Below, piece after piece: positions 1-31,070 of a stretch of DNA of 31,194 nt. The stretch is from Escherichia phage 503458. Under the pieces are notes generated by a model that ran no database searches, was not told where the DNA came from, and saw nothing but the letters and a program-made list of their open reading frames with translations. The position numbers and the translations under genes are program-made. Position 1 is the stretch's first letter, and the number at the start of each line of letters is the position of its first letter. Location: the sequence record NC_049341.1. One strand, written 5' to 3'.

Positions 1-884
1 TAGCTGCTGCCACTTTGCCGCCGCTGCACGTCTTGCTGCCTGCTCGTTCTGATAAGTCTTGCGTAACACAAACACGTTGCCTTCCGCGCCTTCCATATAG
101 TCGCCTTCCCGGCTGCTGCTTTTCTCCTTTTTCGGTTTGCGGCGTTTCACGCTGACTTTTTTCTTTTTCCCGTAATTAAGATCAAGCCAGTAGGCGCGTA
201 CACCCGTATACGCCTCGCGGTCAGCAATGCGAAACTGATGGCGATCGCCGCTGCTGCGTGTGATGGCAAACGATGGCAATGGTTTTCCCTGTGCGTTCAC
301 GCCACCGCCTGGCATGATGAATAACAGATTACCGCTTTTTACCGTGGTGATTGCGCCCAGCATTTCCGCCATGCGCGTAAGGAAGGACATGTCGCTTTCT
401 TCGGTCTGGTCGGCGTGGTCGATTTCGATATCCATCAGCATTTCGCTGATTTGCGGTTTCAGGCCGTACCGGTGAGCGATAGCAGATACCACGCGCTCAA
501 CGGTCACATCATGCCAGGACACTTCACGTTTAACGTTAAATTCATCCCGAAAATCTGCGCTTCTGGCTGAAACAGTCAGCCTGTCCGGCGGACCTTCGTG
601 AGCGATTTCATCAACAATGTAAGTGCCTTTTTCTGTCAGCGGTTCTCCTTTCCAGCAATGAGAACGTCAGGCGCGCGCCCGTGGCGGTAGCTGCAACTGA
701 CCATCCGCATCATCCAGCGTGATGGTGAGCTGGTCCGCTTCAAATCCCCGGTTGTCGGTCAGTGACAGACTCATCAGCGCTCTGCCACGCCGGACAGCGT
801 TTTCCCCTCCGCGAGAATATCAAAATCCGGCATTTTCACGGGGTCTGTGCTCTGACTGAGCAATTGCATGGTGGTGTCGGTCAT
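1..884 (-). pseudogene. D: P2 gpD-like tail protein (late gene D); C-terminus runs off the left edge; N-terminal third broken by at least two single-base frameshifts (~645-700 and ~775)
   Basis: Reverse-strand translation of 1-640 gives one open frame (…EIAHEGPPDRLTVSARSADF…REAYTGVRAYW…AARRAAAAKWQQL) resembling P2 gpD from memory; N-terminal pieces (MTDTTMQLL…, MSLSLTDNRGFEADQL…) lie in other frames; RBS GGAGG upstream of ATG at 884. Confidence 0.65.
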
Positions 885-1999
885 CTTTCCTCCCTGTGCG
901 GCATGGTGCATGTGCGTGCGGAGGGGTTACTGCTTTTTGTTGTCGCCGTGGCGGGAGAACGGCGCAGGGGTGAGATTACGCGCGTGGTGGGTGATGATTG
1001 TTGCCGAATCATTTAACGGATACAGGGGCTGAAGCTATGAGTGAAACTCGTTTTCATGGTGCCCGTGTTACGGAAAGTACCGACCTGGTAACAGCGATTA
1101 ATGATGTTGATTCCAGTGTTATCGGTACGTGGCAACGGCGGATGATGCGGATGCGGAGCTGTTCCCGCTGAACAAGCCCACACTGCTGACCCGCGTCAAT
1201 GACGTGCTGGAAAATGCGGAACAACGGGGACGCTTTATCGTGCGCTTAAGGCCATCGCAGACAGGTGAGCACAAAGGTGATCGTCGTTCGCGTGGCTGAA
1301 CACAAAAAGAAGACGGAAAAACGCAGGATCAACTGGTTATCGGTGGTTCTGAATCTGACGGCAGCTATACGGGATGTATGCGCTGCTTGTTGCAGAGCAG
1401 GATGAAAGCATCGGATACCGTCCGCGTATTCTGGCCGCGCCGGAGCTGGATACGGAGGCGGTAACAAAATCCCTGTGCGTGATTGCGGGTAAACTGCGCG
1501 CGTTTGTGTATGCCTCATGTCACGGCTGTAACACGATGGCTGAGGCGATTACCTACCGCCAGAAATTCAACGAACGTGAGTGATGCTCTTATGGCCGGAC
1601 TTCATCGCCTACAACCCGAAAAGTGGCAAAAACGAAACGTTCCCCGCGCCTGCCTATGCGTGCGGCCTTCGTGCGTACATTGACCATGAGCAGGGCTGGC
1701 ACAAATCGCTGTCCAACGTTCCGGTTAAAAATGTGCTGGGGATGTCCAGGCATGTGTTCTGGTCGTTGCAGGCCGAAGACAGTGATGCCAACAGCCTCAA
1801 CAACAAAGAAATCACGACCATTATTCGTCGCAACGGGTTCCGCTTCTGGGGCAACCGCACACCGGAAACGAACGCCTACATCTTTGAGGTGTATACCGAA
1901 CCGCACAGGTGCTGGCTGATTCAATTGCGGAAGCGCAGTTTGAAACCATCGACAGTCCACTGACGCCTGCGAACGTGAAAGATGTTATCAGTGCCATCA

Positions 2000-3950
<1,951 letters not shown>

Positions 3951-20679: not shown

Positions 20680-21515
20680 TCAGAAGTCAGCCAGCTGGTC
20701 GGAGGCTGCGCCCGTTGCGGTGAACCGGTTCTGCGGATCGCCGTCCTGCGTGCGCAGTTTTTCCTTCAGTGCTGCCAGCTCTGTGGTCAGTGAAGTGATT
20801 TTCTGGCTGTCCTGCTGATGGCGGGTTTCCAGTGCATTAAAACGGTCGATAATGTCGGCCTGTGACGTTGCGACGCCTTCCACCGCTTCCTGAATGCGGG
20901 AGAAACTGGCGTCATCCGCTTTGCGGCCACGGCCAATAATCCCCATTACGCGGTTAAACCACTGGGTGCCTTCTTCCTGGCGTTGTTCTGCCATTTCGAT
21001 GATTTCAGACTCGATGGTTTCGGAGATAAGCGGTGCTTCACCCTGGACACCGTTGAACGTCATCACCGCCTGACGTTGCTGTGCCGTGAATTTCAGGCGC
21101 TCAGTGCCCAGGCTTGCCGGGGTGTCGGTCATCGCCAGCCCGACCAGATAGGCGCGCCCGTTAACGGAGAACTGCGGGTGCAGTTCGATACTGGAATAGA
21201 TTTTCTTGCCGTCCGCGACAAGCTGCTTCATGCGCTCGGTCGGTTCGATTTCTGCATACAGCGCAGTACGTCCGGCCAGCGGGCCTTCCGTAATATCTTC
21301 CGTACTCAGCGCGGTGACATCGCCCATTGCGGAAAATTCGCTTGACGGGCATGGCGAGAGATAGTGCTCAACGTTCACGCGGGCAGCGTAAACATCCGGG
21401 TTGAAGTTCTCGGGGCTTCACGCAGATGTACCGGACTGATTTCGCGGCCATCAACAGTTGATCCGGAGACAGCCACGCGAAACTTTTTGCGGGATGTCTT
21501 TTTTTCATTAGCCAT
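20680..21515 (-). pseudogene. O: Capsid scaffold protein gpO with one single-base frameshift near codon 45 (~21415)
   Basis: N-terminus MANEKKTSRKKFRVAVSGSTVDGREI… in one frame, remainder (…NVEHYLS…AYLVGLAMTDTPASLGTERL…) in another. Confidence 0.75.
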
Positions 21516-21669
21516 AGTTTTTGCCCCTCTGACTGGTTCTTCAGTCATGATGGCAAAGCGTAACAGGCTGATACAAAGGGCTTTTGTTGTAAGAAAACGG
21601 CCAGAACAGGGGGTTAAGGAGAACGGTTTCGCGCGCGGGTAATCTTCCTGTAATTACTCAGGGGGAGCA
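21516..21669. promoter_or_regulatory. Divergent late promoter region between O and P
   Basis: Only intergenic space between divergent capsid and terminase operons; no clean TGT-N12-ACA activator box found. Confidence 0.3.
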
Positions 21670-23417
21670 ATGATTCAGGACGCTTTTGTGCGCCAGCGTG
21701 CGCGGCAACTTTACTGGCAGGGTTATCCGCCCGCAGAAATATCACGTCTGATGGGAATAAACCCGAACACGATTTATGCGTGGAAAAAACGCGACCAGTG
21801 GGATGAAACGCACCCGTGCAGCGTGTCACGCAGTCCATTGATGCGCGCCTCATCCAGCTTACTGAAAAACAGAATAAAACAGGCGGTGACTTTAAGGAAA
21901 TAGACCTGCTGACCCGGCAGCTTAAAAAGCTGCATGATGGCCAGCCGGATGTGATGGCCGCAGGAAAGAAAGGCCGGGCGAAAAAACTCAAAAATCATTT
22001 CACGCCGGAACAGATTGCCGCACTGCGGGAAAAATCATCAGCAGGCTGGAGTGGCATCAGCGGGGCTGGTTTGACTCCCTGACCCTTTGCAGGGAAGCCG
22101 GGATACGTAACAGGATGATCCTGAAATCCCGACAGATTGGGGCGACCTGGTATTTTGCACAGGAAGCACTGCTGATGGCGCTGCGTGACGATGTGGCGCA
22201 ACCTTACCAGCGTAACCAGATTTTTTTGTCTGCGTCGCGTCGTCAGGCGTTCCAGTTTAAAAGCATTATTCAGAAGGCCGCGGCTGAAGTTGATGTGGAG
22301 CTGAAAGGGGGCGATAAAATCATCCTCTCCAACGGCGCAGAGCTGCATTTTCTCGGCACTTCTGCTGCGTCGGCACAGTCCTATACGGGCAATTTTTATT
22401 TTGATGAATTTTTCTGGGTCAGTCGCTTTGCTGAACTGCGCAAGGTGGCTGGCGCTATGGCAACCCTCAGCGGACTGCGGCGCACCTACTTCTCCACGCC
22501 ATCCACCGAAACGCACGAGGCATACGCCTACTGGAACGGCGACCGCTGGAACGAGAAAAAGGCCTCGCATAAACGCCAGCGTTTTTCTGTGGACTGGAAA
22601 ACGCTGCATAACGGGCTTATCTGCCCTGACCGGACGTGGCGGCAAATTGTCACGCTGGAAGATGTGGTTAATCACGGCTGGAAACACACCGATATCGACG
22701 AAATTCGTGATGAAAACACCGAAGACGAGTTCCTCAATCTCTATATGTGTGAGTTTGTCCGCGAAGGGGAATCGGCATTTAACCTGAATATCCTGATTGG
22801 CTGCGGCGTTGACGGATACGACGACTGGAAAGACTGGAAACCTTTTGCTCCCCGCCCGATGGGAATCGTCCGGTATGGATTGGGTATGACGCAAACGGCA
22901 GCAGTGGCAACGGCGACAGCGGCGCTGTGTCCGTGGTGGTTCCTCCGTCTGTTCTGGTGGCCGTTTTCGAACGGTGGAGACGCGACGCGTTCAGGGGCTG
23001 GAGTTTGAAGAACAGGCCAGAGTCATTGAAGAGTTCACGTGTCGCTACAACGTGGAACACATCGGCATTGATGTGACGGGCGGGAACGGGGAGGCTGTTT
23101 ATCAGATAGTGAAACGGTTTTTCCCTGCCGCTATTCCGTACACCTTCACGCTGTCATCAAAACGGTCGCTGGTACTGAAAATGCTGCAAATAATGCGTGC
23201 CGGGCGGTGGGAATACGATCGCGCCGAACGCGAGCTGGTCGCGGCCTTTAACGCCGTGCGTAAGGTGAAAACACCGGGCGGCTTTATCACTTACGAAACG
23301 GACCGTGCGAGGGGGATCAGCCACGGCGACCTTGCGTGGGCAACCATGCTTGCTGTCATTAACGAACCGATTGGCGGCGAAGGAGAAAACGAGCGTTTCA
23401 CGGTTATGGAGTTCTGA
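21670..23417 (+). pseudogene. P: Terminase large (ATPase) subunit gpP, split over at least four frames by single-base indels
   Basis: Successive ORFs 21670-21903, 21816-22082, 22115-23008, 22974-23417 read as one terminase-like protein when frames are joined. Confidence 0.75.
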
Positions 23418-24530
23418 TGAGCAGAAAAAATAAAAAATTGCGCATGAGTTCACGCATTGATCTCGCTGATGCGCTCAGGAAAGAATCGTCGCTCAGTGCA
23501 TTCACATTTGATGGTCCTTACCGCTGACCGGGCATGACCTGCTGGACAATATGTACTGTGCTGATAACGGTCGGTGGTATGAAACCCCGGTGGACTGGTA
23601 CGGTCTGGCAAGAGCTGCCCGGCAAACGTCCTGGCATCAGTCTGCGCTTTACTTTAAGCGCAATGTATTACTCGGTTGCTACATCCCGCACCGCTGCTTT
23701 CCCGGCAGGATTTCTCGGCGCTGGACTGGTTTGTGTTCGGTAACGCATTTCTTGAGCTTCGAAGCAATATGCTCGGCGAACCGCTTAAATTACGGCACGC
23801 CCTGGCGAAATACATGCGACGCGGAAGCGATCTTGAATCATGGTGGTATGTGCAGGATGGCAAGGACGCGTTTCAGTTTCGCCCTGGCAAAGTGTGTCAC
23901 CTGATGAATCCTGACATTAACCAGGAAATCTACGGCATGCCGGAATATCTCGGCGCATTACTCTCGGCCAGCCTGTCTCATTCGGCGGACATGTTCAGAA
24001 AACTGTATTACGACAACGGATCCCACGCCGGGTGCATCATCTACATGGTGCAGCGCAGGTAACCGCGAAAGCATGGACTCCCTGAAAGAAACGCTACAGG
24101 GTGCGCGTGGTGGTGGTGCGTTTAAAAACGTGCTCATTCATGCGCCCAACGGGGGCAAAGAGGGGGTGCAAATTTTGCCGTTCCAGCAGATCACCGCAAA
24201 GGATGAGTTCATGAATGTTAAGGCGGCATCCCGTGATGATGTGCTGGCTGCGCACCGCGTTCCGCGCAACTGATGGGGGCGATGCCGGGTGAAAAAAGTG
24301 CGTTTGGTGATGTGGAGAAGGCCGCGCGGGTTTACGCAATTAACGAGCTGATGCCCGTCATGGAGGCCATGAAGCACATCAATGACTGGCTTGGCGAAGA
24401 GGTGATCCGCTTTAACCCTTACGCACTGTTAGACATCCAGCCACATCCTGACGCGCTTCGCTTGTCTGCTGCTTCGCCGGGGCATAAAAAATTTATGCCC
24501 CGATCTCCAGCTCCTGTATCAGTCAGATAA
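23417..24530 (+). pseudogene. Q: Portal protein gpQ, fragmented by several frameshifts; 3' end uncertain
   Basis: ATGA overlap with P; fragments at 23417, 23551, 23676, 24073 and 24273 lie colinear in different frames. Confidence 0.65.
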
Positions 24531-24893
24531 TTTCACGACGCCTTCCAGTTTATCGCCACCATCGACGGTCAGACTCTTACGCAATCCACCGCGTTGACTG
24601 CATGTTCTCGCCGCCTCAGTGCGATTTTGACGGCCTTACCTTTCACCCCATAAATCAGAATCCTCACGTATTTTTCACGCTCAGCGTGAGAAATACGGCC
24701 ATTCTGTCGTGTCGCTGCGATCGTTAAGGAGCGCTATTTACCCCTGAAACGCGGGCTGTTCCCCGTCACCTGCGCGCAGAAAAACGCGTTTTTTTGTGCA
24801 CGCACGGATCCTTGACGGATCCAGCCGCCATGCGGGCCGGAAGTACAAAAAGTCGTTCAAAAAATTGTGCAAACTTGTGCACTATCGTGCAAA

Positions 24894-24917
24894 CAAAAAA
24901 GCGCCTTATCGGCGCTT
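24894..24917 (-). terminator. Possible rho-independent terminator for leftward transcription
   Basis: On the minus strand GCGCC-GATAA-GGCGC followed by TTTTTTGTTTG. Confidence 0.4.
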
Positions 24918-25213
24918 CAAAAGTATCAATTGTTGCTGTGTATTAATCGCCAACCACGAACATATGCTTCATAGGCATCTCTGTGCTTACAGTTCAGCCT
25001 GGCTAAACGGAATGTTAGCTAAAACTAAATCATTCTGAGCCATAGCGCGTCCTTCAAGCGCATCTTTTATGCCTAGCTCAAAAGCACAGGCAGCGCATTT
25101 GTGCCGACCTTCTTGTCCTTGATATTCAGGGAGAGACAGAATGTTGGGTTATAACGATGAGGGTTCTTGCAAATACCTGTTTTAGCCCGCACTTTATTTA
25201 CCTCATAGGAAAA

Positions 25214-25293
25214 ATATGCGTGCCTTTACAGAGGTGCGTGTAAGCAATAAATATACGACGCACATTTTGAACTACTTCGGAAGGCACGCATAT
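25214..25293. repeat. Perfect 13-bp inverted repeat (ATATGCGTGCCTT / AAGGCACGCATAT) separated by ~54 bp
   Basis: Direct reading of sequence; internal region also partly self-complementary. Confidence 0.7.
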
Positions 25294-25320
25294 CAGGTTA
25301 AGTGAGTCCGACCGAGTTTT

Positions 25321-25354
25321 ACGCCCCAATAGTTGCTGCTATTGGGGCGTTTTG
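25321..25354 (+). terminator. Rho-independent terminator (plus strand)
   Basis: ACGCCCCAATAG-TTGCTG-CTATTGGGGCGT 12-bp perfect stem followed by TTT. Confidence 0.55.
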
Positions 25355-25463
25355 CATGGACAATGCTGCGCAATTATCTTGTCGCTCACAATGCGAACGA
25401 TCTTACAAAAAGGCACATTACTGTCAAGTAATTGATCGTTTTAATCGATAGATAATAGACAAT

Positions 25464-25864
25464 CTATTTGTTTAACAGATCGATTATTGAAGTAAGTGTG
25501 CCAAATGGAATGATACTGTTTCTATAAACGTGAGCATTTTTCGCGCAGATGCTTTTACCAGGAAATAACGCCCGGATATTCCCAGCCATCTGGCTGGTTA
25601 TCTTAGCCACTGGTGCAGACTGTGCTTCAAACTTTTTTGAGCTGATTTGTGTCACAGGTAACATCTCATCATCAGCCATGCGGCCAGTCGGTAAGCCTCT
25701 GCCGGATTCATTTTCAGAAGTGCCAGCCCGGCCAGAAAAGCCACGCGTTGGCCGCTTTTGCGGGCTTCCGGTGTAAGGCTGTCCAGCCAGGCGCATGCTT
25801 CGCTTTCGTTCTTGACGGCCGCAGGCTTCAGATAGAAACTTATCCGCCTGGTTGGTGTCGTCAT
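25464..25864 (-). pseudogene. parR: ParR/StbB-like partition adaptor, one frameshift near 25655
   Basis: MTTPTRRISFYLKP…RVAFLAGLALL… then …NIRALFP… in a second frame, resembling plasmid R1 ParR from memory; AAGGAG RBS. Confidence 0.55.
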
Positions 25865-26815
25865 TGGTTTACTCCTTGTCCATTGCGTACAGCCCATTAA
25901 CCAGAGCAAACTGTGGCACCCCGTCCGCGATGAAAGTCGCATTAACTCCGCAGGCTTCGCGGATAGCGGGTGCCACAATCTCCGCCCCGCCACCGACAAC
26001 CATCACCCCCGTAACCCGAAAAACCCGCCAGCGCGCGGATCACGCGTTGTTTCAGTGTTTCTTCCTTTTCACGAATAACCGCCATCAGGCTGGCGTAATG
26101 CGCGTCATTGTGGATGTGCTGGCGCAGCCAGGCTTCATCATGGCGATGTTCGATAATGGTATTGGCGATGTGGTGACTGGTACGCATACCGTTAGTGGCC
26201 ATCACCGACAGTACTGCATCAGCCATCAGGGAAACGCCTACGTGTGGATCGCAAAACACCTGGCTGATACCTGCCAGTTGTCCCTGAACCTTTGCCACAT
26301 CCAGCGTGGTTCCACCTAAATCCACAATCAGCAGGGATTCAAACGGACTCATGTCAGCCAGTGCTTTAAAGCCAGCCGGAATGGATTCAGGCATAACCCG
26401 TACATTACGGATAGTGAATGCTTCGCCGTTCTGGTATTCCACGGGCGCATAACGTTTGCTTTTTTGCGGTTGATGTTGGCCATGTGGCTGTGTCGAAATA
26501 CTCGCTCAGTGGCAGGGTGACAACCACATCCACCTCCTGTGGCGTGATGCCTGATTTGACCAGCGCGTGATGAATGGCAATGACATTCACATCGCTGTAC
26601 TGGTATTGCGTGTCGGTCGTCTGGATAAAGCGATCGCTGACCGGATCAAAACCATAGCGCACGCCATCAAGCATGTAGTTCGCGGGCTGCGTGCCACCGA
26701 ACGGCGCAGACCATTCCGACTTGAAGCTGTTCGGGCTGATGGCGTTGCGGCGTTCGCCGTTCTCAGTCCATGCCAGCTTGATGTTGGTGGAGCCGTCGTC
26801 GATACAAATTTTCAT
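25865..26815 (-). pseudogene. parM: ParM/StbA-like actin-family partition ATPase, at least two frameshifts (~26440 and ~25990)
   Basis: N-terminus MKICIDDGSTNIKLAW…ISPNSFKSEW…YQYSDVNVIAIHHALVKSGI… closely parallels R1 ParM from memory; second fragment contains IVDLGGTTLDV phosphate-2 motif. Confidence 0.7.
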
Positions 26816-26845
26816 GTCGATTTTCCTTATGTTGATTAATTAACC

Positions 26846-26957
26846 GTTTACGGGATTCTGAAATCCCTCTTTTGCCTGTTTTGTGCGTGCTTCATATCGC
26901 GGCACGTTTTTTGCTCATTTACGGGATTTGTGAGTCCCGTTTCTGTCTGTTTTTTGT
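26846..26957. repeat. Two ~40-bp direct repeats, each containing a 6-bp-arm palindrome, upstream of parM (candidate parC-like centromere/operator)
   Basis: GTTTACGGGATTCTGAAATCCCTCTTTTGCCTGTTTTGTG and CATTTACGGGATTTGTGAGTCCCGTTTCTGTCTGTTTTTTG. Confidence 0.6.
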
Positions 26958-27093
26958 TTCCACTGGTCAGGCTACCCCGCAGCAGGTCTGCTTTGCGGTG
27001 GGCGCGTTCAGTGGTTTCACTGATTCTCTGTGCGTGCTCTGCGTCACGGATGGCGCGCAGCATGTCAGAAAGCACGGTAACGGGGGTTTTCAT
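26848..27093 (-). CDS. Small hypothetical ORF downstream of gpA; 3' half runs through the direct repeats, so true extent is doubtful
   Basis: 81-aa ORF in six-frame track. Confidence 0.3.
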   Translation of the reverse strand: MKTPVTVLSDMLRAIRDAEHAQRISETTERAHRKADLLRGSLTSGNKKQTETGLTNPVNEQKTCRDMKHAQNRQKRDFRIP

Positions 27094-27223
27094 GGTGTTC
27101 TGGTCTTGCTGAAGTGTGGATGCCAGGCGTGCGGCGGCTTCAGGGTCTGATGCCCCCAGCTGTTCCAGATAGCTGGCGACCGGGTTATGGCGGATCTCCG
27201 TGCTGCTTACGCCGTGATACGGC

Positions 27224-29547
27224 TCAGGCGTTGCCAGAGCTGCGTGATTCGGCTGTCCGGGCGGGTATCCGGTTTGCGTACAATTTCAAATCCCTGCGGT
27301 GCAATGATGCTGCCGTCAACGTACAGACTGCCGCCCGTAACAGGTGCTGCATCTGCTGTTCACCAATATGCAGGCCGAGAGATTCAGCAGACTCCCGCCA
27401 TTCTTTAGCGAGTAACTCGTGGTTATCAGGCAAAGGCTGTGGCTGTTTGCGGCTCTGTGTCCAGTTCTGCATTTCATCGCTGCTGTTTTTTGCCTGTTTG
27501 TCACGAAGCGAACGCATCAGCGCCCGGCGTTCGTGCCGTTTCAGTGAGCGCATCCATTCGTTCACGTCAACGCCGTCAGGAAGCTGCGGCCACGGTGCTG
27601 GCCGTTCTTCCGGCTGTTCTGTCCCGTTGTTGTCCGTTTCCTGTACACGGGGACAGTTATTGCCACGAGTCCAAGGGGCGGCAGGGCCGCCCTGAAGGTC
27701 AAAACCATTTTCGCGGGCGCTGTCTTCCGCTTCCGGTTTACGTCTTACCAGCTTCCAGTTATCCGGGTGCGTGCACACGCGGGAAGATTCCCCGATTTGT
27801 GGCGACCAGATCCCGTAAATCTGTACGCTTTGCTCGCCGTAATCGTTCAGCTCTTCTGCGAGGTCGTAGGCGGTGCGAATCAGGTAATCCTTGCGTGGAA
27901 CAAGTACGCCACCCTGTTTCTCAATGTAGGTGGCAAAACACCCGGCATCAGCGGCAGCGAGTACCGCATCCATTGCGTCATTTTCCAGACGTTGTGGACC
28001 TTCCGGGCTGCGGGCCATCTGACTGGCAAGGCGGCGGAGTTCACGCCATACCTGACGGGAGGGGATACCAAAGAACTGGAACTGGCGGACGCGGTGAAGG
28101 CGCGCCCAGCCGATGGCGCGTTCCACGCTCTCGGCCATTGATTTTCCGGTTTCGTGATCAACGCGTGGCTTGCCTGTTTTCGGGTCAATGCCATCCACGG
28201 CGCGGCTGTCCAGGTTCTTTCCGATGTAGGTGGCGCGTACCTTTCGAACCGTCGACGTACTCTGCCTTAAAGCGGAGTTATGTCATTGCCCAGCTCGTGG
28301 CGGTCTTCGCGAATGGCAATATCACGGGTGATGTCCACGATGCTGTCGATTTCTTCAGGATGTGCAAAGACCATCATGTGCCAGTGCACGGTGCCGTCAT
28401 GGTGTGGCTCCACCGTGCGGATGCCATACCAGCGCAGGCCGTCGCGGTTCAGTTTTTTGCGGACTAAAAAAAGTGTTAACCAGGTAATCGCTGGAATCGC
28501 GCATGGTGGTGCTGTTCCATTTGGGATTCGGATGACCGCTCTCCGTTGTTGCGTGATATTTTGACGGGCAGGTAACGGTCAGAAATACCGCTTTGTCGCC
28601 ACGGGCTTCGGCCAGAAGTTCCAGCCCCTTCATGGTGGCCATCATTTCTGCCTTACGGTGGACCGGGTTACTTACTCCCGCGTAATACACCGTCTCGAGA
28701 TCAATCGTGAACCCGTCTTCATTTTCCAGCATGAAACTTTTCAGGAAATCGCGTGTTTTCTCGCGCTGTGCGCGAAATTCACTTAATGCGTCCTGACTCA
28801 GATAGGGGGATGTTTTTCTGGAAACCAGACAGGCAGCGCGGAGTTGTTCCTCTCTCCATTCGCAACGTAAAAGCCACAATTTGCGTTTCCACCAGTCCGC
28901 ACAGGTCAGGCGGAGGATTGCACCCGGCAGCAGTTCCGTGTCCGGTTCGTTCTTCCGGTCTTTGTCTGTTGTCAGTGCGTCATAATGCGGCGGCACTGTC
29001 TGCAGATGTAACGCCATGCGGGCCAGCATCTGATACGCCTTCAGCGTTATATCCATGGTCAGCTCGCCGTCGATCGCGCCAAAGTCATCGCAGAGTTTTT
29101 CGAAGGTGCTGCTGAACATCGCCGTCATGACGGCCAGCGTCTGTATCTGGTGCTTGTTGAGCTGTGGCAGGTACAGCAAATCGTCCAGACGTTCACGTCC
29201 GGCAAGGGAGCGATAACCCGGAGTCAGCCAGCGACGGTCGGTGCGGGCCAGACGTTCGAATATTTTGCGCAGGGTTCCGCTCGCATAGCGTTCTGCCTGC
29301 TGGTTCTTTTTGCCTTTCTGGCGGTCAGATTCCTGTTTTTTGCGCAGGAAAGAGAGATGGCGGATAAGCGGATCACGCAGATAGGACGGCAGCAGACGCA
29401 GTGCGGCAATTGCTTCATCCACGCACCGCGTGCCTGCTTTCTGGCTTCTCTTGCCAGTGTGATGGCTTTGTCCTGTTTTTCCTGTGCGTCCAGGCTTTTA
29501 TTAATCAGATTGCCCAGCGGTGCGGCGGAGAACGCCGCATCAGCCAT
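27224..29547 (-). pseudogene. A: Rolling-circle replication initiator gpA (HUH endonuclease), split over at least four frames
   Basis: Fragments 29547-, 29422-28397, an HUH-containing piece (…HHDGTVHWHMMVF…) and 28198-27224 are colinear; tyrosine motif region (EYV…ATYIGK) is split by a frameshift. Confidence 0.7.
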
Positions 29548-29706
29548 TTCCTGGCGGCGCTCGTTCTCTGCCCGGTAGGCATCCAGCCAGGAAGAAAGAA
29601 GGGAGGGACGGACAGACTCCCCCGTCCCTCGCGACCGACTGCATGGCGTGGTTGTTGCCAGTCTCTGATGTACTCCGTTGCCACGCCGACTACTCCGCCT
29701 TGCCGC

Positions 29707-30050
29707 TCAGTGCATTGTGGCAGACGGTAGCCAGCCGCTGGATTGCATGGTGCTCTCTGTGCTGGCATAACGGTGTGTTATGCGAATGCTGTCAGCAATT
29801 ACATCAGCAATCAGAGATGAAGTTCGCTGGTAAATACCCAGTACGGAAGGCGTGCCGCTTTCGATGCGGGAAAGTGTGTAATCCTCCTGGCAGCTACCAA
29901 CCATGTAGCGCCCGTCAATAACAATCTGTCCGTCGGGAGCTGCTGTTCCGGCTGTGATTTCAGATACATTGCATAGCGGTCGAGAACGCGAATACCAAAA
30001 TCGCGCTCGGTTTTCAGCAGGTAATCAAAAAAGTTTTCGGCGAGAATCAT
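29707..30050 (-). CDS. Hypothetical early-region protein (~114 aa), apparent frameshift near 29905
   Basis: ORFs 29811-30050 and 29707-29904 are contiguous in adjacent frames; RBS AAGAGGA before ATG at 30050. Confidence 0.4.
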
Positions 30051-30191
30051 TGCGGCAATCCTCTTGTTGCAGATGTGCGAAGGCCTCCCGCCGCAAGGTG
30101 CAGGAAAGGCCCGGAACAGGAATTAACGGAGTTTGTTTTGCTGCCGGATGAGCTGCTGAAGCCCGACGTGGTTTCCGGCAGTAGGAGGTGC

Positions 30192-30437
30192 TCATGCTCT
30201 GATTTCCCTCAGTAGCTGGTTGAACATCTGGGTTAGTGGGTTGCTACACCCAAACGGCATCGGGTTTACCTGATAAGAAAAGCGACCGCCTGTTTTGCGT
30301 TCTTTTCTTATGACTGAACCGCTGCGCCAGAGACGGCGTAACTCCGCATTAATGGTTGTGGTTGGGGTAATCAGTGCTGCGGCGATTTCTCCACCACTAC
30401 AACCCGGATTGGCAGCGATGTAGTCCAGAATGGTCAT
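30192..30437 (-). CDS. Hypothetical small protein (81 aa), possible winged-helix DNA-binding protein
   Basis: ORF with ATGA-type overlap to the upstream ORF (translational coupling). Confidence 0.5.
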   Translation of the reverse strand: MTILDYIAANPGCSGGEIAAALITPTTTINAELRRLWRSGSVIRKERKTGGRFSYQVNPMPFGCSNPLTQMFNQLLREIRA

Positions 30438-30637
30438 CTGCGTGACTCCTGTACCTGTCTGATAAGATTCACCTGCACCACGTTGGTGGCGCAGAAGTAA
30501 GTGCCGTCAGTGAGATAGATGTGATGTGCATCCTTTTCTGAACGGTGTTTGTCGATTGTGGTAATCAGGCGTTCGTCAACTTCGTATTCACGTCCTCTGG
30601 AGGTGAAACGAACGACAGGAAAATGCTTAATTGCCAT
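30434..30637 (-). CDS. Hypothetical small protein (67 aa; start at ATG 30637 rather than track start 30688)
   Basis: AAGGAGG RBS 6 nt upstream of ATG at 30637. Confidence 0.5.
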   Translation of the reverse strand: MAIKHFPVVRFTSRGREYEVDERLITTIDKHRSEKDAHHIYLTDGTYFCATNVVQVNLIRQVQESRR

Positions 30638-30857
30638 TACGCCTCCTTGGCGTGTGCGAATACCTCCGCGAATGCGGATTGTTTTCACATTTTCTTATTT
30701 AACCTGGAGTCTTATTTGCGCGGTTATTCTTCAGTGAAAAAGCGTTCAATCTTTTTTTACAGAATTAATAATTCGCATAATCCCAATAGCGCAGGCCACC
30801 GAAATAAAACAAGCCATGAGATAAATATACTCATGCAATATTCCCAGTTTATATGGC

Positions 30858-31070
30858 TCAATATGGTCCCGTTTTCTGCGGCGCAGACGAGTACGGAAAG
30901 CTCGTCGAGCGCGTCCGGTCATCAACGTAAAAAGCCGTGTCGTACAGACTCTTGATGGCTCTGGTCAATGACTCTCGGGCTGCGCGTTCAGCATGAGCGC
31001 CTGATGCGTTTAAGCGAAAATGAAAGCGCTCAAGTGCTTTATTGACGAGAGTTTTATATTCTTTATCCAT
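30858..31070 (-). CDS. Hypothetical small early protein (70 aa)
   Basis: ORF in early-region orientation; function not recognised. Confidence 0.4.
   Translation of the reverse strand: MDKEYKTLVNKALERFHFRLNASGAHAERAARESLTRAIKSLYDTAFYVDDRTRSTSFPYSSAPQKTGPY

Follow-up and report, generated by a model that had tools for sequence, protein, structure and literature searches.

A predicted type II ParMRC partition module behind gpA in the P88-like, chromosomally integrated prophages of Escherichia coli

In the sequence record NC_049341.1 of Escherichia phage 503458, of which a stretch of 31,194 nt was analyzed (hereafter the window), two broken reading frames on the minus strand, parM followed by parR, were recognized from six-frame open reading frames (ORFs) and the raw sequence. 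They are located directly behind gpA, the replication gene of a P2-like prophage, and belong to families of actin-type partition proteins. Both genes are intact in the relatives of this prophage, evolve under purifying selection, are fixed in the P88-like lineage of phages and reside in the host chromosome, and a pair of sites upstream of parM is conserved as well. We are inclined to regard the locus as a functional type II ParMRC system, which would serve a transient extrachromosomal phase of an otherwise integrating P2-like phage.

The parM gene (25869-26815, minus strand; ATG at 26815-26813; coordinates mapped from the sister prophage in the chromosome of E. coli 510016) encodes an actin-like partition ATPase with the N-terminus MKICIDDGSTNIKL, starting at window position 26815. 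The frame of parR (25555-25864, minus strand), which is predicted to code for a centromere-binding adaptor of the StbB/ParR family, opens with MTTPTRRISFYL at 25864. In intact relatives parM comprises 960 bp (319 aa) and parR 312 bp (103 aa), whereby parR starts 4 bp past the parM stop codon. The preceding gene, gpA (26892-29684, minus strand; 940 aa when intact), is annotated in the sister prophage, and its copy in the window carries several frameshifts. It encodes a P2-type rolling-circle replication endonuclease, and a gap of 76 bp separates its end from parM, which lies on the same strand. The gpA equivalents in distant relatives match the Pfam family Phage_GPA.

In order to assign the two gene products, the intact translations were compared with family and structure databases. 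ParM matched StbA_N (PF06406) with E=1.7e-81 (272 bits, cut-off 24.6) and the ParM C-terminal domain (PF21523) with E=1.1e-68 (231 bits, cut-off 27.4). The comparison with the R1 ParM structures (PDB 1MWK and others) yielded E=2.3e-92 over residues 2-315 at about 50% identity. The nucleotide-binding and catalytic motifs are identical or conservatively kept with respect to 1MWK, namely DDGSTNIK (phosphate-1), MPESIPAG (catalytic Glu), DLGGTT (phosphate-2), and GGGAE (adenosine), and all four are unchanged in five phages. PHROGs labels ParM a partition protein, whereas in NCBIfam ParM gave matches below threshold only and ParR gave none. Judged by its similarity, ParM belongs to the R1 (type II) ParM family at a level far beyond chance. 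ParR matched the Pfam family PF10784 (Plasmid_stab_B) with E=1.3e-23 (83 bits, cut-off 25) as well as PHROG 2515, which is labeled “partition protein.” The first-pass annotation had read the two frames as a ParM/ParR-like pair, and the frame-corrected proteins are indeed best assigned to partition families, with the ParR-like partner confirmed on the intact translation.

The alignment of 18 ParR homologues revealed an invariant N-terminal RRISFYLKP, a hypervariable linker, and an invariant C-terminal NI..FP. RRISFYLKP would be expected to form the DNA-reading strand of a ribbon-helix-helix protein. The tail motif, (K/R)xN...LFP, is likewise found at the C-terminus of an IncL/M plasmid ParR and of the ParRs from four distant phage relatives. 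In R1, the C-terminal tail of ParR binds ParM, and among the PDB matches of the ParM search was 4A62, the complex of ParM with a ParR peptide; the phage ParR tail would fit such a ParM-binding C-terminus. A search of ParR against PDB sequences gave zero matches even at E<=1. An AlphaFold2 model of the ParR monomer, built from the 18-sequence alignment, reached a mean predicted local distance difference test score (pLDDT) of 54.7 with helices at residues 20-61 and 86-100 and a disordered N-terminus, as is expected for a strand that is formed only in the dimer.

The ratio of nonsynonymous to synonymous substitution rates (dN/dS) of parM among five phages is 0.02-0.11. For parR, it is ~0-0.05 in the N-terminal domain, whereas the linker is fast-evolving and the tail combines a dN of 0 with a high dS. 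Because of these low values and the full-length copies across E. coli genomes (see below), we conclude that selection keeps the module. Apart from this, parR is a mosaic: The first 18 codons and the last ~8 are common to all alleles, whereas the middle is swapped between allele groups, which share only 55% identity there, while in the adjoining parM the identity does not fall below 98%. For one phage group, the similarity found by megablast breaks off inside parR.

As given in the record, both genes are frameshifted, as had already been seen in the first-pass annotation. In parM, 13 bases are missing in four events, at ~26009 (2 bases), 26443 (1), 26486 (2), and 26489 (8), and in parR two single bases are missing at ~25559 and ~25678, which splits the frame. 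The loss at ~25559, in the last sense codon of parR, removes the true TAA stop, and the ORF runs on to 25464; this artefactually extended ORF of 110 aa is annotated as “partition protein [Escherichia phage 503458].” Of the bounds initially given for the pair (25464-26815), the upper one thus holds, whereas the lower one is the end of this extension and has to be replaced by 25555, where parR ends. The six frame-breaking deletions in the two genes as given might be taken for real, so that the module would be a dead remnant in this prophage copy, which is defective anyway by an IS100 in its tail sheath gene. We consider this hardly credible. In a 1.85-kb region, 18 bases are missing from the window relative to NC_049344.1 (Escherichia phage 520873), with 0 substitutions, and the comparison of the whole window with the reverse strand of that record showed 2 mismatches, 102 missing bases, and 6 extra bases. 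The comparison with the E. coli 510016 sister prophage, which extends over 25.9 kb, revealed 85 gap positions and not a single mismatch. The 66 deletion events (102 bases) are confined to two blocks of the record, window positions 657-2222 and 21414-30919, with none between 2222 and 21414; they mostly concern a single C or G, while others cover 2-14 bases, and the essential genes are struck alike, with terminase, portal, and gpA, among other genes of these blocks, frameshifted in the same manner. A sister record from the same study carries different frameshifts at other places, and the homologues in the E. coli genomes sampled have exactly the length of the 1108-bp query, which comprised parM and the region ahead of it. 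Since real decay would bring substitutions too, the deletion blocks look like a locally poor consensus of a long-read assembly, and we regard the frameshifts in parM and parR as sequence-quality artefacts and not as pseudogenization. The IS100 itself (IS21-family istA/istB) lies within the tail sheath gene at window ~2000-3950 (ORFs 2183-2845 and 2842-3864, minus strand), and the same element (insertion sequence) is annotated in NC_049344.1 at 31966-33746. Therefore, this prophage copy is defective for virion production, whatever the state of parMR.

In order to find out how parMR is distributed, the window region 25300-27150 was used as a megablast query, which led to near-identical DNA in 12 phage records, all of them P88-like Peduoviridae of the genus Xuanwuvirus, and matched 1372 E. 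coli records. parMR is present in all 12 phage records (9 distinct phages) with a P88-type gpA, defined as at least 92% nucleotide identity. Beyond the P88-type phages, the phage collection contains this ParM only in the phage-plasmid D6, where it is 47.8% identical. Relatives with 54-63% identity to ParM occur in Plesiomonas, Hafnia, Serratia, and Enterobacter, in all four cases in P2-like prophages with the shared order gpA, parM, parR, variable genes, and then portal and terminase. In the Serratia and Enterobacter prophages, the variable genes include HicAB or a KAP NTPase. The DNA similarity to P88 ends at the parR stop codon, and the 89-aa cargo gene downstream of parR is swapped for unrelated genes in P88, 569R5, Chuche, and Shae_phiSM. 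The interval between gpA and the portal gene Q (23417-24451, plus strand) is the P2 old/tin hotspot of anti-phage systems, and StbA together with Plasmid_stab_B is found in at least 489 entries of the corresponding locus table, though the text does not discuss the pair (Rousset et al. 2022, PMC9122126). The placement of the pair between gpA and cos, at the old/tin position, was thus correctly recognized at first pass. Its reading as accessory cargo is not borne out by the survey, in which the 12 P88-type records and four further genera all keep the same order. As the similarity ends at the parR stop and the genes beyond vary from phage to phage, the gpA-Q hotspot proper begins only after parR, and the comparison identifies parMR as a fixed backbone component of the P88-like (Xuanwuvirus) lineage and not as variable cargo.

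Outside of phages, three ParM homologues with at most 52% identity adjoin Rep3/ParA or Tra genes, i.e., they are found in plasmid or integrative and conjugative element (ICE) contexts, and the nearest true plasmid ParM in PLSDB is 53% identical. By tblastn against PLSDB, the phage-type ParR had no plasmid match outside inserted P88-like prophages. In a neighbor-joining tree of 36 ParMs, the sequences from phage contexts fell into two groups, P88/Hafnia/Plesiomonas and Serratia/Enterobacter, and the tree does not resolve whether these two make up a single clade apart from the plasmid ParMs and go back to one acquisition. A scan of genome contigs with ParM detected 3 near-identical loci only; the more distant relatives were obtained by protein search and contig look-ups. 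PADLOC found no match for ParM, ParR, or the 89-aa cargo protein. One ParM that is 98% identical to the E. coli phage protein lies on a 226-kb contig labeled Vagococcus sp. WN89Y, a Gram-positive assembly, and is likely an enterobacterial contamination of it.

Among 5426 complete E. coli genomes, 1304 (about 24%) contain parM with its upstream region, including O157:H7, O121, and enterotoxigenic H10407 strains. In 1279 of the 1304, parM is full-length with the upstream sites, and all but 9 of 1305 matching records show at least 95% identity. Of 30 sampled matches, 29 span essentially the whole 1108-bp query and have an annotated ParM adjoining the replication endonuclease. The locus was placed 1442 times in a chromosome and twice on a plasmid. 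Furthermore, an intact attP of the pdxB-type integrase, searched with a junction query taken from a circular relative, was found in 0 of the 442 genomes with that integrase type, and all matches break at the same point beside pdxB. The lineage retains integrase, Cox, and repressor genes, and the sister prophage is integrated adjoining yecA with an integrase of its own. The window corresponds to positions 35823 to 4534 of NC_049344.1 only and is without the integrase/repressor/cox end and the ogr/late-control end; therefore, attL and attR are not visible in the window itself. No plasmid-type copy-control module was noticed in the annotations, in which only the rolling-circle gpA was seen, although no systematic replicon search was made. 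Seven “plasmid” matches were obtained from PLSDB, of which three were opened and three of the other four are 439 kb to 1.4 Mb in size. NZ_CP148288.1 (pZ1323PEC0009-2) is a circle of 34,461 bp that consists of a whole P88-like genome, in which int is joined to the ogr/methylase end and thus forms an intact attP; it is the only record found with the phage as a separate circle. The second one opened is a linear, IS1-riddled prophage fragment. In the third, NZ_CP110658.1, a Salmonella IncHI2 “plasmid,” a sopE-carrying P88-like prophage with parMR lies beside pheA, tyrA, rplS, and ffh with IS26 nearby, which reflects either an IS26-mediated capture of a chromosomal segment or a misassembly. With 1442 versus 2 places and 0 of 442 intact attP sites, stable plasmid maintenance as the norm for P88-like prophages is not supported. 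The suggestion in the first-pass annotation that the element was or is kept extrachromosomally as a phage-plasmid thus finds no support in these counts. An episomal state is also not a new idea, since P88 has been listed as a putative phage-plasmid, with episomal and integrative states suggested and its integration noted (Pfeifer et al. 2021, PMC7969092).

The upstream region of parM was inspected for a possible centromere (parC) or operator. Two copies of a 20-bp palindrome of the pattern ACGGGAyTnnnnAATCCCGT were identified. The proximal candidate site, ACGGGATTnnnnAATCCC (26850-26869), lies in the gpA-parM spacer; in the intact reference, its GGG precedes the parM ATG by 52 bp. The distal one (26921-26940; ACGGGAyTnnnnAgTCCCGT) lies within the last gpA codons. 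In the intact reference the two are 73 bp apart, a distance that 2 missing bases shorten to 71 bp in the window. The pattern matches twice in the whole window compared to 0.13 matches expected by chance, and the site pair is kept in P88, 569R5, Chuche, and Shae_phiSM. In a relaxed form of 16-20 bp, GGG-N10-CCC, the pair is located at -125/-52 relative to the parM ATG in P88-type phages, at -128/-55 in Hafnia, and at -131/-59 in Plesiomonas, with spacings of 73, 73, and 72 bp, respectively, which is roughly seven helical turns. The sequence between the paired sites is unrelated across the three groups, and the upstream gene differs as well. Because the position is conserved though the intervening sequence differs, the sites are probably a protein-binding pair, which would serve as parC and/or operator. 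The palindromes were also considered as transcription terminators, but there is no T tract on the parM-sense strand, the T-rich tail on the opposite strand is not kept in Hafnia and Plesiomonas, and in the latter the sites can pair to no more than a 3-bp stem. Thus, a protein-binding role would fit the palindromes better than a terminator role. In the Serratia/Enterobacter ParM group, the GGG-N10-CCC pair is missing and one long inverted repeat is found at the same place instead, with the arms GAAATAGAAAAAT and ATTTTTCTATTTC in Serratia and ~30 bp between them, which suggests another centromere or operator design with the same ParR family.

Consensus scans between gpA and parM showed neither a sigma-70-like promoter, the interval of the candidate sites included, nor a terminator-like site on the parM strand. 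As both genes lie on the same strand with a gap of 76 bp and no evident promoter or terminator between them, parMR is probably the tail of the gpA operon and would be co-transcribed with gpA, so that the partition proteins would be made together with the replication proteins. In P2, the early operon is silenced in lysogens by the immunity repressor. Such a repression would make sense, because an active ParMRC would bring no benefit, or would even do damage, if it acted on a parC in the chromosome.

If the module works like its homologue on plasmid R1, the pair of GGG-N10-CCC sites shortly before parM would be occupied by ParR dimers. With its conserved C-terminal tail, ParR would capture ATP-ParM filaments at their growing ends, and DNA circles that carry parC would be pushed apart by the filaments. 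Since parMR would be made together with the gpA replication proteins, and since transient circular phage DNA is the kind of substrate that partition systems handle, we infer that the module acts on gpA-replicated circular phage DNA, either after infection and before integration or after excision. In this way, each of the daughter cells would receive copies of the circle, and/or the copies would be brought into position for replication; the prophage would not be maintained as a plasmid. Several points weigh against this interpretation. The candidate sites number just two, whereas R1 parC has ten iterons; it might be that they form an autoregulatory operator only and are too few for filament capture. 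The co-transcription with gpA is based on simple consensus scans, and a weak or regulated promoter might lie between the sites. The ParR monomer model is too poor to confirm the ribbon-helix-helix fold. The circle NZ_CP148288.1 would fit an episomal state as well as excised phage DNA. Furthermore, a lytic or lysogenizing phage has no obvious need for partition, most P2-like phages are without a ParMRC, and the literature search brought up no experiments on this module.

It could also be that the P88-like phages are true phage-plasmids with a dual lifestyle, which persist over many generations as low-copy circular plasmids maintained by ParMRC, with integration as the alternative state. A low-copy plasmid would need just what is seen here, a complete ParMRC that is strongly constrained by purifying selection, P88 was scored in this way with both states (Pfeifer et al. 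2021, PMC7969092), and one circular PLSDB record comprises a whole P88-like genome. We judge this improbable, however, in view of the distribution of 1442 chromosomal to 2 plasmid places, the missing attP junctions, the retained integrase, Cox, and repressor genes, and the rolling-circle gpA as the sole replication gene seen, with copy control not noticed and no systematic replicon search made. Of the other two PLSDB records opened, one is a linear fragment of a prophage and one a prophage between chromosomal genes, and the lone circle might stem from the separate assembly of phage DNA after excision or induction. A lytic role would dispense with inheritance altogether: As with AlpAC of the prophage CGP3, ParR-anchored ParM filaments might position or spread the replicating circles and thereby boost replication or packaging, with no role in cell division. 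P2-type phages package monomeric circles, and keeping these apart could matter. Such a role would also agree with the position of parMR directly behind gpA on the same strand without a terminator-like site between, and in CGP3 AlpC and AlpA are made early, bind circular phage DNA, and are needed for efficient replication (PMC4446434). Nevertheless, we hold it to be rather unlikely, because the present ParM is closely related to the segregation motor of R1 (~50% identity) and not to AlpC, and most P2-like phages replicate well without a ParM, which in the phage collection only the P88-type records and D6 possess.

The location in a documented anti-phage hotspot, the at least 489 StbA/Plasmid_stab_B entries of the locus table (PMC9122126), and the allelic mosaicism of parR with its hypervariable linker might point to yet another function, namely a conflict with plasmids or other phages through partition incompatibility or through ParR as a decoy or repressor. 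This is very unlikely in our opinion, since the pair is fixed and not variable across the lineage, has no PADLOC match, and sits beside the variable defence-like genes (HicAB, KAP NTPase, and others) downstream of parR. Moreover, a cross-reaction with plasmid parC is unlikely for a ParR type that is without a counterpart on real PLSDB plasmids. A ParMRC acting in a transient extrachromosomal phase is thus the explanation that we prefer. An extended version of it, which we put forward only tentatively and with more doubt than conviction, is that Xuanwuvirus and its relatives in Hafnia, Plesiomonas, Serratia, and Enterobacter pass through an obligatory, actively partitioned extrachromosomal phase, with ParMRC wired into the gpA cluster and a minimal two-site centromere. 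If this were true, such phages would stand midway between integrative prophages and phage-plasmids, e.g., with a heritable carrier state before integration or after excision, and no natural type II centromere would be smaller than the two-site parC.

Within this window there is nothing new: parM and parR are already annotated as ParM and partition protein in RefSeq relatives, and the frameshifts are errors of the sequence. The paper describing P88 does not mention partition. As around a quarter of the complete E. coli genomes carry this prophage family, its ParMRC is among the most widespread partition systems of the species, although its chromosomal location makes partition unnecessary. Why a partition machine with a two-site candidate centromere is retained in a lineage of integrating phages is a question that can be tested directly. 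Knowing when parMR is expressed and what is moved would tell whether P2-like phages have a hidden plasmid-like stage, which would bear on prophage stability, on the efficiency of lysogenization, and on the evolutionary link of phages, ICEs, and plasmids. For annotation, it follows that a ParM/ParR pair alone is no marker of a phage-plasmid and that the gpA-Q “hotspot” of P88-like phages has to be drawn from past parR onward.

In the variable part of the gpA-cos interval of the window, downstream of parR, the cargo gene (24926-25192, minus strand) encodes an 89-aa protein of PHROG 3941 (unknown function). It has a strong promoter-like site of its own, TTGACA-16-TAAGAT, at ~25400-25427 on the minus strand. 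Facing it on the plus strand, a second promoter-like site, TTTACA-17-TAAAAT (~25225-25253), leads to a perfect hairpin terminator at 25321-25350, and this layout could give rise to a short antisense RNA. Rfam at the gathering threshold had zero matches across the whole window, this region included.

Compared to known systems, the module resembles R1 ParMRC most closely, as the representative of type II. Both share the order of cis sites (candidate sites in the phage), parM, and parR, a full-length ParM with all nucleotide-binding motifs, and a ParR of PF10784 with a conserved C-terminal tail. In contrast to R1, the phage module belongs to an integrating P2-like phage and not to a plasmid, its ParM is only ~50% identical, and its ParR is not detectably similar to plasmid ParRs by tblastn. 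Two candidate sites 72-73 bp apart take the place of the ten iterons, and there is no evident promoter of its own. The classical phage-plasmids, P1/P7/D6, N15, and SSU5, are likewise phage genomes with plasmid partition genes, D6 even with a StbA-type ParM that is 47.8% identical, but they have dedicated plasmid replicons and do not integrate into the chromosome as their normal prophage state, whereas P88-like prophages are integrated in essentially every complete genome examined. The P2 old/tin genes and other gpA-Q cargo occupy the interval from gpA to cos/portal as parMR does (Rousset et al. 2022, PMC9122126). They are, however, variable between close relatives and defence-related, while parMR is invariant in its lineage, lies on the gpA side, and has no match to a defence family.

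Two systems of integrated elements are the nearest functional precedents for the explanation preferred here. AlpAC/alpS of the Corynebacterium glutamicum prophage CGP3 is induced early, binds circular phage DNA, and is required for efficient replication (Donovan et al. 2015, PMC4446434). Here, too, an integrated prophage combines an actin-like filament former with a DNA-binding adaptor that has its sites in the upstream region (PMC4446434), but AlpC is a divergent actin-like protein and not an R1-family ParM, the host is Gram-positive, the phage is of another type, and the role shown is replication efficiency and not inheritance. SrpMRC of the SXT/R391 ICEs stabilizes only the excised form of the element and is expressed only before excision, together with excision and replication functions (Carraro et al. 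2015, PMC4489591). Like parMR, it is a ParMRC-type system that is strictly conserved in a normally integrated element with rolling-circle replication (PMC4489591). The two differ in that SrpM and SrpR are distant from R1 ParM and ParR, with SrpR lacking a recognizable domain, whereas the phage proteins are clear members of the R1 families, and in that the host element is an ICE and not a phage; furthermore, the function of SrpMRC has been demonstrated, while the phage module is known by its sequence.

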